Source: a virus (lineage: Duplodnaviria; Heunggongvirae; Uroviricota; Caudoviricetes). From it: DNA of 38,527 nt. The notes beneath the pieces were generated by a model. It was not told where the DNA came from and did no database searches. It was given only the letters and a program-made list of their open reading frames with translations. A program made the translations under genes and the position numbers. Of the stretch, positions 2,319-33,095 are shown piece by piece (positions within the stretch are counted from its first letter, which is position 1; each line of letters opens with the position of its first letter). The stretch lies in the IMG/VR virus record IMGVR_UViG_2563366883_000008. One strand, 5' to 3'.

Positions 2319-4400
2319 TCATTTATTCACATTAGACGAAGAGACCGCATCGTTAACCTGCACTTTAATTGTGTCAAACAACATCGGGTAAGTGGCTGCA
2401 TTGCCGGTAATATCGGTCAGTGTCAGTTGATCCACCGTGAACCCGGCATTCACCCACTTCACAAGTTCAAATGGTTCACCATCTTTCCCGTCCAGAACTG
2501 GGGTAACACTCATGCTATTACCACCTGCAAACCGTAACGAGAGCGTATGCCATTCATGATCAAAGACACCATACGATCCTATCTGTTGACTTCCGCTCCC
2601 TTTGTGATACATCACATTCAGGTTAGCTGAATCCGTTTGCAGGAAACATGATGCGATGAGGTTATTTTTTCCGTCACCGTCAGGCCAGTTACTTACAGCC
2701 CAGTAAATACCAACACCATACCGGTTTTCCGCAATGCCCGCATCCGATGGAATTTTGAAACGGAGGGAAATATCACCACCTCTGGCGAACAAATCCCTGG
2801 CATTATCAGCTGTGATCGGATGATACATTTTCCATGAGGCCATGCTGTTAGGCGCTTTATTCACCCTTAACGCTTTGTTACCACCTGTTGCAGCAGCATC
2901 CGTGACAAAGGTTGCTTTTCCGGAAGCCGCATTCCACCCCTGATCTTTCATTGGTTCTGTCGGGGCGTTTGCAGTATACGAAACGATGATCTTCATCTGA
3001 TCGCTCACGTCCTTCACATCCCCGGTGGGTTCAGGCTCACTCTTACCGGTATCAGAATGTTCTGTTGCCGTTACACCGCGGAAGAAAGCAGATTTTTGTC
3101 CTGACAATGTCAGAATCGCTGTTGCCAGACGGTCTGAAATAATTCCACGGCGCGCCCATGAACTGAAATGGCTTGCCCTGTCGTTTGATGTCCAGTTAGT
3201 CGAATCGCGACTTATGGCACCATAATAGCCAATACCTGGAATATCCGGGTCTTCATCTGGATTATTTGTCGGTACATTTTTTCCATTTTCATCCACAACA
3301 AATGGAACAAAGTGAATGTTCTTTGCTTCATTAGCATATTTGCCATAAACAGCTTTGTATTGTTCTGGATATGTATTTTTCCAGTAATACGTCGTATCAC
3401 CACAGATCCACGGTACAGAAGCCATATCTCCGGCTGGAGATTGCGCAGAAAAAGCCGAAAGTTCACGCCTGAATGTTTCGACCATCGTCACAAACAGACC
3501 GGAATGTTCAGCATGTTTTCCTGTTTTCAGATCATTCTCGCCCTGCATCCAGACAACGGACAGGAGAATATTTCTGGGGTTACTGCTGAGAGCCGCTTTT
3601 GTTCGGTTAACAAGATCGCTGAACAAAGGTTTATTGACTCCCCAGCGCGATGATGCAGATGTTGCTCCGGAAGCTTCAGTAAATTCACCATCAGCACCAT
3701 CGGTAAATGCAGAGCCTCCTCTGGCACAGGGAACCAGAAGGATACCAGCCTCTTCCGGGATAAAGGGCAGGAGTTTTTTTGCAATATGCAAACCCTGGCC
3801 GACACAACCATACTGACCTTTTGAAAGATCTGCTTTTGGATGATTATGGTTACTCATATCCAGCACATCATGAAGACAGTGATCTGCCGGAATTATATCG
3901 TTGTAGGCGCATTCAACCCCGCCAGGTGTAACCGTGTTACGGCGAGCCAGCTGTTTAATACGTGGATCAGGTCGATCATAGGTATCAGGCAAAGGAAGAC
4001 CTTCACCAAATGACGATGCATTCGACTGACCAGCAATAACAACCACGTAATACCAGGACGGAGTTTGACCTGCAACTTTATCTCCTGCTGAAGAAGTGTA
4101 TGTTTCCGCATTGTTCCAGTCTGACGGTTCAGTAGTACCGGCAACATCAGCACTTAACGGAATGACAGCACCAATACCCGCTCCGGTAATTTCCACGTTC
4201 GGATCACCGGATACTGGCCTTACCCACAGGCAATCCCGTGTATTAAAACTGATGAGACAGTCAGCAAATGTCATACCTCCTTTCGTTTCAGCCGGAGGAA
4301 AGGGAGCCTCAAGAAATGCCGCTGTACCACCGGAAACTTTAACGGTAAAGTTTCCGGGCATTGATGATAGTTGAACCCATTTGGACGTCATAATATTCAT
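2319..4400 (-). CDS. SGNH/SASA-type carbohydrate esterase domain protein (sialate O-acetylesterase-like), 693 aa, with extra N- and C-terminal domains
   Basis: VVIAGQSNA block (GQSN nucleophile motif) in the central region; long C-terminal domain of unknown function; lies between gin and com where Mu has no gene. Family call from motif only. Confidence 0.6.
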   Translation of the reverse strand: MNIMTSKWVQLSSMPGNFTVKVSGGTAAFLEAPFPPAETKGGMTFADCLISFNTRDCLWVRPVSGDPNVEITGAGIGAVIPLSADVAGTTEPSDWNNAETYTSSAGDKVAGQTPSWYYVVVIAGQSNASSFGEGLPLPDTYDRPDPRIKQLARRNTVTPGGVECAYNDIIPADHCLHDVLDMSNHNHPKADLSKGQYGCVGQGLHIAKKLLPFIPEEAGILLVPCARGGSAFTDGADGEFTEASGATSASSRWGVNKPLFSDLVNRTKAALSSNPRNILLSVVWMQGENDLKTGKHAEHSGLFVTMVETFRRELSAFSAQSPAGDMASVPWICGDTTYYWKNTYPEQYKAVYGKYANEAKNIHFVPFVVDENGKNVPTNNPDEDPDIPGIGYYGAISRDSTNWTSNDRASHFSSWARRGIISDRLATAILTLSGQKSAFFRGVTATEHSDTGKSEPEPTGDVKDVSDQMKIIVSYTANAPTEPMKDQGWNAASGKATFVTDAAATGGNKALRVNKAPNSMASWKMYHPITADNARDLFARGGDISLRFKIPSDAGIAENRYGVGIYWAVSNWPDGDGKNNLIASCFLQTDSANLNVMYHKGSGSQQIGSYGVFDHEWHTLSLRFAGGNSMSVTPVLDGKDGEPFELVKWVNAGFTVDQLTLTDITGNAATYPMLFDTIKVQVNDAVSSSNVNK

Positions 4401-17545: not shown

Positions 17546-17961
17546 ATGAAGCCCTTCTGGTTGCGCCCGAATACCGCCGCATCAGACTGAACCTGTGGTA
17601 AATCCCCGGATTCAGGGGCCGCACCGTTCGTATCCACACCGACCGGCACATTGCCGTTCATGACATCTTTCAGCCAGGCCAGCGCTTCGCGGTAACGGTC
17701 ACGCGCCTGATCGGAGGCTCTCTGATCGCACAGGTAATAAAAGGCAATCGCGCAACAGTGCTGAACAAGAACTGCCGGAATAACCTCCAGCGGCAGCGTG
17801 TAACGGGCGGACAGATAGCTGTCGATAAGGGCTGACGCATCTGTCAGCGCCCGGTTCAGCTTGCGCGTGTCCGGCTCATCCGAACGGGGCACTGCCAGTA
17901 ACGGCCTGAGCAAATCCTCGCGGTAACGCGCCCGCATATCGGTTTCAGTGGCGTAATTCAT
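17542..17961 (-). CDS. Head completion/connector protein (Mu gp36-like), 139 aa
   Basis: Position after the major head gene region. Confidence 0.55.
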   Translation of the reverse strand: MNYATETDMRARYREDLLRPLLAVPRSDEPDTRKLNRALTDASALIDSYLSARYTLPLEVIPAVLVQHCCAIAFYYLCDQRASDQARDRYREALAWLKDVMNGNVPVGVDTNGAAPESGDLPQVQSDAAVFGRNQKGFI

Positions 17962-18395
17962 GCGTGGGCCTTTTTCGCCTGTTTCGCTTTGTTACCGGTC
18001 TTTTTCCGGGGAGCATCCTGTCCGGCTTCGGCTTCGGCTTCGGCTTCGGCTTCGGCTTCGGCTTCGGCTTCGGCTTCGGCTTCGGCTTCGGCTTCGGCTT
18101 CGGCTTCGGCTTCGGCTAAATCTGTACCGGCCACTGCATGAACCACACCCGCCACGCTCCCCGCATCATCAGCAGGCGTCTGTAGTATTCGCACAGTGAG
18201 GCATGGCTCCGCCTCCAGTCGGGCAAGCTGCTCCGGGGTGACCTCAACCTGCTGACGTCCACGCGTGAACAGGAACCCCGCACGACGAAACGCCGAACGA
18301 CTGCAACGCACTTCTGCCAGCACCGTGACAGAATTGTCACCACTGACCTGAAGACCTGAATCATCTGTTGCTGCCACAGTGTGATGTTCATTCAT
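17958..18395 (-). CDS. Hypothetical head-module protein with (Ala-Glu)n repeat and Lys-rich C-terminal tail, 145 aa
   Basis: Between major head gene and connector genes; contains the GGCTTC tandem repeat. Confidence 0.6.
   Translation of the reverse strand: MNEHHTVAATDDSGLQVSGDNSVTVLAEVRCSRSAFRRAGFLFTRGRQQVEVTPEQLARLEAEPCLTVRILQTPADDAGSVAGVVHAVAGTDLAEAEAEAEAEAEAEAEAEAEAEAEAEAEAEAGQDAPRKKTGNKAKQAKKAHA
18022..18117. repeat. Tandem hexanucleotide repeat (GGCTTC), about 15-16 copies, encoding (AE)n
   Basis: Read directly: cggcttc repeated without interruption across 18022-18117. Confidence 0.95.
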
Positions 18396-27609: not shown

Positions 27610-27940
27610 TCGTGGCCGCCTCACTGATTTGTGAAATGAGTTGCAGGGTGCGTTGCTGGTTTGCCAGCACCAGACGGGCTTCGTCCCGTTCGCGCACAAG
27701 CACATGATTATTGTCCTCAAGGCGCTGCGTCTTCTGGTGCATTCCCCATACCACGGCAGCCAGCACGCTCATCACCCCCAGCGCCGCCATACAGCCTCCG
27801 GCAATCAGGGCCGGTAAGGGATTATTCACCGCAGCCACAGCACACCCCGCAGCAGCACAACGGCACACAGCAGCGCAATCATGAGCGGTCGCCAGAAGCG
27901 GTTCAGACTTTCGGCAAATCGTAGCGACATAACCATTCAT
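27440..27940 (-). CDS. Putative i-spanin (start at ATG 27938-27940; the ORF-track start is a TTG)
   Basis: Hydrophobic N-terminal segment then coiled-coil-like region; overlaps the endolysin 3' end. Confidence 0.5.
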   Translation of the reverse strand: MNGYVATICRKSEPLLATAHDCAAVCRCAAAGCAVAAVNNPLPALIAGGCMAALGVMSVLAAVVWGMHQKTQRLEDNNHVLVRERDEARLVLANQQRTLQLISQISEAATNEKQQNIQHSEGQQSVVRRSLAAVPAASAPVPDDVADRVRRAVCEIRACEAGADPR

Positions 27941-28403
27941 CCGCCGAACGGCGGGCCTCAAGACCGGGGAGTTTCACCCCCTTCGAATAAATCCAGCGGA
28001 TGTACTGCTTACAGGACGCGGGCATCTGCCCGGCATTGATCAGGCGCAGAAGCGTGGAGTTGCGGAAGTTCGTTTCACCAGCCCAGAAGATCCACGAAGC
28101 CAGCGCCACCGTCTGACCACGGGTAAGCGGCACCTGAACACGCCGATCAATGGCCGCAAAGGCCCATTTCATGTCCTTTTCCAGTAGTTCCAGGCATTCT
28201 TCATCCGTCAGGGTCATACCCGGTTTCACATCCGGGCCGGTATGGCCGTAACAGATGGTTGGTGTACCGGTGGGATCGATATACGTGGAGTTTTCTTTCC
28301 CTTCCCAGTAACCGGTGTAATGCGTGGTAATGGTGAACGTCCCGGCACCGGCCAGAACAAGGGCAATCAGCTTTTTACGCAGTGGTGCGGGGAGTTTTGG
28401 CAT
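27903..28403 (-). CDS. Endolysin, T4-lysozyme-like (GH24), probably SAR-type, 166 aa
   Basis: N-terminal weakly hydrophobic Gly/Ala-rich segment (LIALVLAGAGTFTITT); YWEGKENSTYIDPTGTPTICYGHT E-D-T catalytic block. Confidence 0.85.
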   Translation of the reverse strand: MPKLPAPLRKKLIALVLAGAGTFTITTHYTGYWEGKENSTYIDPTGTPTICYGHTGPDVKPGMTLTDEECLELLEKDMKWAFAAIDRRVQVPLTRGQTVALASWIFWAGETNFRNSTLLRLINAGQMPASCKQYIRWIYSKGVKLPGLEARRSADEWLCRYDLPKV

Positions 28404-28474
28404 TGTTACGCTGTCTCATGATGTTCTCTGAGTCAGCGTAACGGTGAAGGAAAGGCGGCAGGCTTTGCGGAATA

Positions 28475-28897
28475 TCAGAAAAGTGGCGGTTGCGTTCTTG
28501 CCAGATGCAGACGGCGCTGTTCGCGTATGACGGTATAAATCTGGGTTTCTGACATCCTGTAATGGCGGCGCAGGGTTTCAATTTTTTCGCCCTGGCTCCA
28601 GCGGGAAAAAATCTCATTATTGCGCAGTTCGGTGAAAAGGGATTCACCGACCGGGAGATAATAACCACGCCCGCCCATGTACCCGGCCTGTGCGGCCGCA
28701 ACTTTACGGGCAAGCATTCCTGCCTGAGCAGGTTCAATCCCCTGACGGTGCAGTTCAGCACTGATCACATCAACCAGGTCCCGCAGCGTGCCGGGCCAGT
28801 TCTTTTTCAGCTCATCATCAGGAATGTCATCCAGACGGTCAATCAGCGCGTGCAGCTGTTCGCTGTCACCAAACATGCTCATCTGTGTTTCAGCCAT
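28475..28897 (-). CDS. Mor/C-family transcriptional activator of middle/late genes, 140 aa
   Basis: C-terminal HTH region and QPPLF terminus resemble Mu Mor as I recall it; directly upstream of the lysis genes. Cannot say whether it is Mor or C. Confidence 0.75.
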   Translation of the reverse strand: MAETQMSMFGDSEQLHALIDRLDDIPDDELKKNWPGTLRDLVDVISAELHRQGIEPAQAGMLARKVAAAQAGYMGGRGYYLPVGESLFTELRNNEIFSRWSQGEKIETLRRHYRMSETQIYTVIREQRRLHLARTQPPLF

Positions 28898-28939
28898 ACC
28901 CGCCTCCGGTCATCATTACACAGGGCAAGTTTAAAATAA

Positions 28940-28963
28940 AAATCCCGCGCTGTGGCGGGATTT
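28940..28963. terminator. Terminator hairpin, copy 1
   Basis: 9-bp stem aaatcccgc/gcgggattt, loop gctgtg; A-run before and T-run after, strong in minus-strand sense. Confidence 0.6.
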
Positions 28964-29237
28964 AGAGGCGCTGTAAATCATAACCCGAAATGAGCTGTGT
29001 ATTTATTGATCATTTTCCGGTGTAACTATATGATAAAGATCGTTTTTATTTTTAAAAATACAAACCCTGAAGGAGTTTTTCTTATCAAAAAGCTTGTGCA
29101 TATTGCGGGTTATTGTTGTTTCATCAACATGAAAACCAATTATCCCAACTCTTAAAGCACACCAGGCTTGCTCCAGTGCAAAAACAAATAATTTCAGTCT
29201 GCCTGACAGCGTTCCACCGGAATAAAGGAAGATATCC

Positions 29238-29660
29238 ATGAAACAACCTCCATCTTTGCTTTTATCGTGCCCACCAGAACTGGCCCATGAACTCAATGAT
29301 CTGGCGAAAGAGTATAAACTTACAAATCATAATATAGAAGCAGCAACACTTAGTGCTGCCGGAAGCGATATTGTATTGATCGTTCTGGCCGCAGCTTCAT
29401 GCGATGGGTTCTGGCAGGCATTAGCCAGTATGTTTCAGACGTGGTTACATCGTAAACCAACAAAACAAACACCCCCGGAAAAGAAAGTTATTCGTAGCGT
29501 CATTGTTCGTAGCTGGGAACACTATCAGGAGACAACTAAACAAACTGAATTTTATAACTTTGATGCTGATGAGCTGGCTAAATTGATAGCGTTATATGAA
29601 AAACCAGATGAAACAATTGGTTGCATAATCCCGTCAGAAACGGAAATTCAGGAAAAATAA
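29238..29660 (+). CDS. Hypothetical protein (140 aa), opposite-strand moron gene
   Basis: AGGAAG RBS; hydrophobic segment DIVLIVLAAASCDGFWQALASMF; AT-rich; stop immediately followed by hairpin copy 2. Confidence 0.6.
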   Translation: MKQPPSLLLSCPPELAHELNDLAKEYKLTNHNIEAATLSAAGSDIVLIVLAAASCDGFWQALASMFQTWLHRKPTKQTPPEKKVIRSVIVRSWEHYQETTKQTEFYNFDADELAKLIALYEKPDETIGCIIPSETEIQEK

Positions 29661-29683
29661 AATCCCGCACTGTGGCGGGATTT
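29660..29683. terminator. Bidirectional terminator hairpin, copy 2
   Basis: aaatcccgc-actgtg-gcgggattt, one loop mismatch versus copy 1; sits between the convergent stops of gemA (29687) and the moron gene (29660). Confidence 0.65.
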
Positions 29684-29686
29684 GGG

Positions 29687-30196
29687 TTAACAGGGGAATG
29701 ATTTTTCATACAGCCTGCAAACGCGCTCATAACTCATCACTGCACGCTCCGACATATCCAGGGCTGCCAGCATTTTGCGGCGGTGCCAGCGTTTGAGACG
29801 CTCCAGCACATCAGAGGCCAGCTCGGGGTGTTGCTCCAGCCACTGCCAGTTAGCCACACCTTCGCCGCCGTTCTGCGCGGCCGTCTGCGATTGCACCCAG
29901 CGGTTAAGGGCCGTTTCCGCACCATCAGAAATAAAGCCCTGCCGGTGCATCACTTTCCAGATGGCGCGAATTTTGGCGGTCACCGTACCCGGCTTTAAGG
30001 CCCGGTTAACCGGTTTCTGACGCACTTTAAAACCGCGTTTTTTGAAAACATCCAGTACGCGGGATAACTCATCCGGTGACATATCCCGGCAACTGGCTTT
30101 ACCGGTGGCTGCCAGCAGTGCGGATGTATAGGTTTCATCATCCAGAGCAAGCTCGCGTTTTGCCACATGAATGGCAGATATCAGTTTTCCTCTCAT
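29687..30196 (-). CDS. gemA: GemA-like regulatory protein (Mu gp16 family), 169 aa
   Basis: ISAIHVAKRELALDDETYTSALLAATGKAS... resembles the Mu gp16/GemA family; last gene of the early operon. Confidence 0.75.
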   Translation of the reverse strand: MRGKLISAIHVAKRELALDDETYTSALLAATGKASCRDMSPDELSRVLDVFKKRGFKVRQKPVNRALKPGTVTAKIRAIWKVMHRQGFISDGAETALNRWVQSQTAAQNGGEGVANWQWLEQHPELASDVLERLKRWHRRKMLAALDMSERAVMSYERVCRLYEKSFPC

Positions 30197-30504
30197 ACCG
30201 TATTTACCTTTTTACGGACATGGAAAGCCTTTTCTGGCTCATTCCACCGGATATGATGCGTTGGCGGAATAATCATTATGTGCCAGCCATCTCTGGTTGT
30301 TATTCGGCAGAAAAACTCACCGCTGTATAACACAATGGCCTGCTGAATAAGCGCATCCGCAGCCAGTTCAAGCAGATATCTTTTATCAAAAAGGCTGATA
30401 ATTTTCCGGCATAACCACCGGGTGATAACAAATGCGCCGAAAAACGATGTGATATATAAACACCAGAACAGCAGAGAAATATTGTCCGTTATTTGCTCAT
30501 CCAT
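30193..30504 (-). CDS. Hypothetical membrane protein, 103 aa
   Basis: N-terminal hydrophobic helix; AT-rich accessory region. Confidence 0.45.
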   Translation of the reverse strand: MDEQITDNISLLFWCLYITSFFGAFVITRWLCRKIISLFDKRYLLELAADALIQQAIVLYSGEFFCRITTRDGWHIMIIPPTHHIRWNEPEKAFHVRKKVNTV

Positions 30505-33023: not shown

Positions 33024-33095
33024 TCAGGCGCGAGCAGTCCCCTGACGCAAGCGCCATAATTAAAACGATGTGATATTTAAAGATTTAATGCGGTG

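Follow-up and report, generated by a model that had tools for sequence, protein, structure and literature searches.

The window analysed here, a stretch of 38,527 nucleotides, is nearly a whole Mu-like prophage of E. coli, with every phage gene on the minus strand. The Mor-family activator gene mor (28475-28897, minus strand; Pfam PF08765, 1e-30; PGAP 'Mor transcription activator family protein') and gemA (29687-30196, minus strand; gp16 family, Pfam PF06252, 1.3e-29, and PGAP annotation) form the left and right backbone flanks of a slot that holds an AT-rich insert of 696 nt, itself flanked by hairpins. An initial annotation of this DNA had described AT-rich DNA between two near-identical 24-nt hairpins in direct orientation, and within it a 140-aa plus-strand ORF with a good RBS. 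All of these features were recovered: the GC content is 0.32-0.44 inside the cassette versus 0.53-0.61 in the flanks, the two hairpins are present with no other copy in the window, and the ORF is identical to a PGAP coding sequence.

The larger gene, P140 (29238-29660, plus strand), runs opposite to all phage genes and encodes an acidic ORFan protein of 140 aa from an ATG start (PGAP hypothetical protein WP_001536796.1). Its Shine-Dalgarno sequence AAGGAAG (29225-29231, plus strand) ends six nt upstream of the ATG, and the AGGA core of this element is kept in five of five cassettes. Compared with the variants in L035 and L042, P140 shows eight synonymous and seven non-synonymous changes, and the protein encoded by L035, P0001, has 95% amino-acid identity to P140. 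Two further variant copies of P140 were seen, P0002 (an ENA contig of 667 nt) and L046 (about 1352-2032). In one variant copy, a deletion between two repeats that encode TKQT removes residues 79-103; in one copy from a metagenome, a C5 run has gained a further C, either a frameshift or a sequencing error.

The smaller gene, P78 (29003-29239, minus strand), lies on the phage strand and encodes a basic protein of 78 aa (PGAP CDS WP_024192020.1, hypothetical protein), with a GGAGG 7 nt upstream of its start (29247-29251). The ATG codons of P78 and P140 overlap start-to-start in a CATG at 29237-29240. Since the two start codons overlap back to back, the upstream region of each gene lies inside the other. 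The P78 frame is intact in all variants, and three of its four unique substitutions between the window and L035 and L042 are synonymous, the other being a V-to-F change. Some gene callers skip P78 (in L035 and L037), and no P78 homologue outside the cassette emerged when 5.8 billion proteins were searched by indexed words. The cassette is nevertheless a predicted pair of genes, P140 and P78, and the earlier view of a single-gene insert was given up: P78 adjoins P140 start-to-start, and its counterpart in the sister cassette described below has a pN/pS of 0.12, the best of six frames.

Across the whole window the hairpin pattern has exactly two matches, the left hairpin aaatcccgc-gctgtg-gcgggattt at 28940-28963 and the right hairpin aaatcccgc-actgtg-gcgggattt at 29660-29683, versus 0 expected from 100 shuffles. 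The repeated unit is a 31-nt sequence that includes the A-tract before the stem (28933-28963 and 29653-29683, minus strand); the two copies are direct, 90% identical and 720 nt apart. Each hairpin folds with -13 to -15 kcal/mol (z -2.2 to -4.3). On the minus strand the left copy reads as a 9-bp stem and then TTATTTTAAA, and T-runs follow both hairpins on this phage coding strand, whereas the plus strand offers UUU only. A GC-rich stem-loop with a U-run, the signature of an intrinsic terminator, is found in both copies on the minus strand and is strong there only, and the hairpins are predicted to be primarily phage-strand terminators.

On the way from P78 to mor, 40 nt separate the P78 stop codon from the left hairpin, and a further 42 nt separate this hairpin from the start of mor. 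P140 ends in a stop codon that extends into the right hairpin's stem, and in all cassette types the stop of the plus-strand gene lies within or adjoins the A-tract and stem of this hairpin. Because of this position, the right hairpin would serve the convergent gemA as a strong terminator on the minus strand and P140 as a weak one on the plus strand. The proposal that two copies of one terminator bracket the insert survives in part: both hairpins are predicted terminators, but mainly of the phage strand, and the left one serves P140 not at all. An Rfam search gave sub-threshold matches only. The stem with any loop is present in many unrelated genomes as a common terminator; the slot is therefore defined by its context, and the stem alone is no specific marker.

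Several features of the surrounding prophage are recorded here in their own right. At 27903-28897 a lysozyme gene comes directly after mor, with no separate C-type late activator in between, and this phage group may use a single Mor/C-family activator behind a terminator. Species-representative genomes were also searched for relatives of Mor, and none turned up. Within a 145-aa minus-strand ORF (17958-18395), the hexanucleotide CGGCTT is repeated perfectly in tandem, in ~16 copies (18023-18117); this is possibly a length-variable region of a structural protein. In the early region, a 20-nt direct repeat, AAAACGATGTGATAT(A/T)TAAA, occurs in two copies that are 95% identical (30441-30460 and 33062-33081) and may be a shared regulatory site.

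To analyze the distribution of the cassette, we surveyed 5,426 complete E. coli genomes, 231 of which carry this gemA-mor region. The cassette is present in 4 of the 231, with an interior that is 100% identical, and a different insert of similar size is found in two others, the clonal mouse strains M1 and M3. About 225 of the 231 have one hairpin and no insert, with gemA and mor ~70 nt apart; this count takes in all other listed records, including 58 of 60 rows spread evenly down the ranking. At the empty site, the left flank of the single hairpin matches that of hairpin 1 and its right flank matches that of hairpin 2, and its sequence is identical to the left hairpin of the window. In a large assembly collection, 1,046 blocks with the exact P140 protein are listed, and the gene order Mor, (P78), P140, GemA was found at every P140 locus read. 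The cassette is present in at least three phage backbones, and its hosts are STEC and other E. coli isolates. These comparisons of the junction across relatives agree with the earlier description of an acquired cassette: the insert is variably present, gemA and mor are otherwise split by one hairpin, and the composition is foreign.

Two loci place the breakpoints. Between L042 and the window, the interior is 99.4% identical but identity falls to 78.5% over 400 nt on the mor side, and this mor flank of L042 is 99.8% identical to that of L005, an empty O157-type phage. Between M3 and the window, by contrast, the flanks are 98-99.8% identical and the interior 53.5%. The opposite identity patterns of L042 and M3 put both breakpoints at the hairpins. 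In addition, the loop variant of each hairpin copy tracks the adjoining backbone flank. The 31-nt repeats are thus well supported by these alignments as the probable crossover points for gain, loss or replacement of the cassette. The suggestion that the terminator had served as the insertion or recombination point is supported by the drop from 99.4% to 78.5% identity between the L042 interior and its mor flank.

The insert of M3 likewise lies between two hairpin copies. It belongs to a sister cassette, which was found in M3, L285, L286 and L288 (E. coli and Salmonella phages), and relatives of the M3 protein, P0007 and P0008, with 54-61% identity, occur in Salmonella serovar Give and other assemblies. 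A tblastn search of a phage collection with P0008 gave no match. Between Mor and GemA, the sister cassettes have a minus-strand ORF of 63-64 aa and a plus-strand ORF of 111-113 aa whose starts abut (CAT|ATG). Between L285 and L286, the pN/pS is 0.12 for the small ORF and 0.21 for the large ORF, each the lowest of six frames, and the small ORF is conserved as a protein across 54-57% identity. The lowest pN/pS in the coding frames indicates that both sister genes are real, with P78 as the positional counterpart of the small one.

At the protein level the two cassette types are only weakly similar. In global alignments, 5 of 2000 shuffles reached the observed score for P140 versus P113, and 63 of 2000 did so for P78 versus P64, while cross-control alignments were not significant. 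Comparison of the window and sister protein families by hhalign gave P values of 0.028 and 0.05. A common origin of the window and sister cassettes is likely, judging from this weak colinear similarity together with the shared position, layout and promoter block. In L285, L286 (2704-2727) and L288, the left copy of the hairpin breaks off after GGCG (AAATCCCGCGCTGTGGCG|ACAGAC), so that these cassettes are predicted to have no terminator between the small gene and mor.

Other cargos occupy the same junction. The distant Mu-like phages L094/L125 and L126/L162 carry an unrelated cassette at gemA|mor (L094 8262-8839; L125 2122-2699; L162 5360-5936; L126 1340-1915), between two hairpins of their own variant that are ~554 nt apart. 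Its cargo is a 140-aa signal-peptide protein (phrog_15648, unknown function), whose gene shares the strand of the phage genes and is frameshifted in L162. In L012 (1592-2929; IMG/VR contig 646311913_000007), an IS4-family transposase gene of 445 aa lies inside the gemA|mor hairpin; this locus keeps just ...CCACAGCGCGGGATTTTT beside mor, which indicates that the hairpin is also an IS target. One junction further, upstream of gemA, L286 has an opposite-strand ORF (3945-4355, plus strand; 136 aa, phrog_585, with a weak DUF2513 match), which suggests a second insertion slot in this phage.

A single block is conserved at the DNA level across five otherwise diverged cassettes. This non-coding block, TATTGATC-N11-TAA.T..ATGATAA..ATC.TTT (29003-29045, plus strand), contains a sigma-70-like promoter, TTGATC-17-TATGAT (29006-29034), whose 17-nt spacing is kept in all five; the -10 hexamer of L285 is CATGAT. 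The block occurs once in the window, and in viral and metagenome scans it was found only in the window and sister cassette types. From its consensus match and conservation, we infer that TTGATC-17-TATGAT is a putative promoter of P140's own. The idea that the cassette is transcribed independently is in keeping, at the level of sequence signals, with this conserved promoter-like site and the good RBS of P140. GATC (Dam) sites lie at 29008, inside the -35 hexamer, and at 29038, just past the -10 hexamer, and the L285-type cassette has three GATC within ~60 nt (about 2790-2850). Methylation-dependent control of the cassette promoter is possible.

The other strand was scanned as well. A promoter scan of the window gave no minus-strand promoter-like site between gemA and mor, either for P78 or for mor. 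The 5' part of P140 was searched for a promoter that could serve P78, but no site recurred consistently across cassettes, and the candidates in the sister type are not conserved. In other backbones, the spacer of 40-60 nt between hairpin and mor, judged by eye, has no conserved promoter.

We then propose an expression model for the cassette. P140 would be transcribed from its own sigma-70-like promoter at 29006-29034, with a start near 29041, and the right hairpin would end both this transcript and that of the convergent gemA. Because the promoter lies inside the 3' end of P78, the P140 leader of ~200 nt would be antisense to nearly all of P78. As there is no promoter-like site for P78 or mor in the window, P78 is most likely made only by read-through: early lytic transcription would pass the right hairpin toward mor, and mor, together with P78, seems to be reached in this way. 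With P78 dependent on read-through, the two genes would be mutually exclusive, P140 being made in the lysogen and P78 after induction, and transcription of P140 would run head-on against the read-through into mor. Two predicted intrinsic terminators lie on the proposed path to P78 and mor, and we count them against the model. On balance, the expression model as a whole has about an even chance of being correct.

For the proteins, Pfam, PHROGs, PADLOC and NCBIfam searches with P140, P78 and the sister proteins returned sub-threshold noise only, and the anti-phage defence models of PADLOC matched none of these proteins. The word-indexed search of 5.8 billion proteins found near-identical copies only. 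An exhaustive phmmer search of 1.84 billion representative proteins found self-fragments and one match to a eukaryotic SEA-repeat mucin, which was rejected as spurious because its score was summed over 7 repeats. No match was found by tblastn of P140 against phage and plasmid collections or by profile searches against PDB sequences, and fold searches with single-sequence AlphaFold models (pLDDT 51 and 50) gave no usable match. Since both proteins are ORFans, any function is inferred only.

Some physical properties are shared between the cassette types. The large proteins are acidic, with a net charge of -2 to -6, and the small ones are basic, at +2 to +8, and contain one moderately hydrophobic segment (Kyte-Doolittle 1.5-1.9). 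The low-confidence model of P78 consists of strand-helix-strand elements. P140 has a hydrophobic segment with a Kyte-Doolittle value of 1.85 over 19 residues, and its low-confidence model has a strand and a helix there. A charged N-terminus of 43 residues comes before this stretch and a basic cluster after it. The hydrophobic character noted earlier for P140 stands, but the claim that the segment probably spans the membrane is weak: a membrane-spanning segment is doubtful, given this charge arrangement, two aspartates in or near the segment (D44 and D56), and the aligned region of the sister family, which is not hydrophobic (1.09-1.39). A lipoprotein reading of the P140 N-terminus (LLLSC) was also considered and rejected, as the hydrophobic region is too short and has two prolines, and the cysteine is missing from the sister family.

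How should the insert be understood? If P140 were alone, the insert would be a single-gene moron and the 78-aa ORF a chance frame in the P140 leader. The missing homologues and the gene callers that omit P78 point that way, and the coincidence of the N-terminal codons of P78 with the Shine-Dalgarno sequence of P140 could explain local conservation. Such a chance frame would hardly, however, stay intact in all variants with mostly synonymous substitutions and a GGAGG at the proper place, nor would its sister counterpart be conserved as a protein at 54-57% identity with the lowest pN/pS of six frames, and we find this reading very improbable. Another explanation accepts both genes as an addiction module, in which P78 is a basic, partly hydrophobic toxin that is checked by the antisense P140 leader in a type I-like manner, by the acidic P140, or by both; the role of the module would be to keep the cassette or prophage stable, or to trigger abortive infection. 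The complementary charges, the hydrophobic core segment of the small proteins, the obligatory antisense overlap that the promoter position predicts and the constant co-inheritance of the two genes would suit such a module. A type II toxin-antitoxin system is a co-directional two-gene operon with recognisable domains, whereas the genes here are divergent with overlapping starts and have no Pfam or NCBIfam domains. In type I systems the toxin is small and hydrophobic, and an antisense RNA overlaps its transcript. An antisense overlap is predicted in the cassette, and P78 and P63 have one moderately hydrophobic segment, but at 63-78 aa, with a predicted strand-helix-strand arrangement (low confidence), the small proteins are longer than and unlike typical type I toxins. 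As no toxin-antitoxin or defence model matched either, we regard an addiction module as rather unlikely.

The insert could also act mainly in cis, with the proteins secondary. Head-on transcription and a second terminator on the sole route to mor would make mor expression less leaky and so stabilise lysogeny or delay the late cascade. That no part of the cassette is better conserved than the promoter block, that GATC sites lie in and beside the promoter and that no promoter-like site was seen before mor, in the window by scan and in other backbones by eye, are all in line with this. Both ORFs are, however, under purifying selection, as seen from the sister pN/pS, so the proteins matter, and the L285-type cassettes are without the second terminator yet retain both genes; a mainly regulatory insert is decidedly unlikely. 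Finally, folded repeats that flank a cassette, varied cargos between the same repeats and an IS element that also targets the hairpin bring to mind a mobile element that moves site-specifically, in the manner of an integron cassette or a transposon, with hairpins read by a dedicated recombinase. Integron attC sites are imperfect palindromes of 57-141 nt with an integrase nearby. The repeats of the slot are instead direct copies of the phage's own terminator, a 24-nt hairpin with a perfect 9-bp stem that recurs with other loops as a common terminator in many unrelated genomes, and there is no recombinase or integrase in or beside the cassette among the annotated neighbours. The loop variants moreover track the backbone flank, as homologous exchange predicts. 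A dedicated recombinase is hardly credible on these grounds.

Together, our results suggest that the insert is a horizontally exchanged two-gene cassette of the moron type in a gemA|mor plug-in slot of enterobacterial Mu-like prophages. This full explanation is somewhat more probable than its negation, and its architectural and evolutionary claims, taken together, are very likely to be right. The function is a more tentative matter that rests on context, and the guess offered here has a chance well below even. It is tempting to speculate that P140 is a protective factor of the exclusion or defence type, expressed in the lysogen for the benefit of host or prophage, and that P78 is its lytic-phase partner or antidote. 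If so, the benefit from P140 would most plausibly lie in competition with other phages.

The cassette resembles morons in several respects. Morons were defined by Hendrix, Juhala and colleagues, in the summary given in PMC4378225, and HK97 gp15 is an example cited in PMC9936078. Like these, the cassette lies between genes that are adjacent in related phages, is variably present, differs in composition from the backbone (GC 0.32-0.44 vs 0.53-0.61), and has a predicted promoter-like site and a terminator at the P140 end, although the U-tract on the plus strand is short. Morons usually have a single coding region, whereas the cassette has two back-to-back genes with overlapping starts. These stand start-to-start and would be coupled by a predicted antisense transcription. 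The flanking terminators also differ, being duplicates of the phage's own that act as exchange points. Expression from the repressed prophage, a further mark of morons, would be expected of P140 under the proposed expression model.

In its mode of exchange the cassette resembles the PeSL regulatory cassettes known from T4-type phages (Arbiol et al. 2010, PMC2839356; PMC4122927). In both systems, repeated stem-loop terminators flank ORFan genes and provide short homologies for insertion, deletion and replacement among close phages; the cassette accordingly has its breakpoints at the repeats, and other cargos are found in the same slot. PeSLs occur at many sites, in hyperplastic regions, whereas there is one slot here in a temperate transposable phage. 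The PeSL motif, in many copies, combines a strong early promoter and a stem-loop, while the repeat of the slot is the terminator alone, in two copies, and the promoter block is single, placed at one end only and 43 nt into the cassette. Mini-circle intermediates are a further feature of PeSLs. An extended reading would take the duplicated terminator as a portable docking site for ORFan cargo, a counterpart in transposable phages to mini-circle exchange in the T4 PeSL system. The cargo would be an undescribed module of two proteins coupled by antisense transcription, with P140 as an exclusion or defence effector in the lysogen and P78, made only on read-through toward mor, as its off-switch or neutraliser when the prophage is itself induced; we consider this reading unlikely.

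A pair of opposite-strand genes is also known from the B3-like transposable phage Fc02, in which olg1/sie1 and gene 10 overlap and both gave superinfection exclusion (PMC9936078). As in Fc02, the phage is Mu-like, and a lytic-operon gene is opposed by one encoded on the lysogenic strand. The Fc02 pair lies beside the repressor and ner, however, while the cassette lies between gemA and mor, and the two are not similar in sequence. The coding regions of the Fc02 pair overlap, whereas the overlap in the cassette involves the start codons and untranslated regions only.

In Pseudomonas Mu-like phages, accessory 'regions of genomic plasticity' have been described for which no common flanking sequence was found (PMC4378225). 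Like the slot, these place low-GC accessory ORFs at fixed core-gene junctions of transposable phages, but here a duplicated terminator marks the junctions. The gain and loss of morons in temperate phages has been called 'mysterious' (PMC4378225). At gemA|mor the junctions can be read directly, as a duplicated intrinsic terminator delimits the slot and the breakpoints map to the hairpins. Among the Mu-like phages of E. coli, Salmonella and relatives, the cargo of the slot is of at least three unrelated kinds. The ORFan pair, in its unusual start-to-start antisense layout, would be a reasonable candidate for a new prophage competition or regulatory module, and the hairpin slot gives transposable phages a simple way to exchange genes, one that is open to test.
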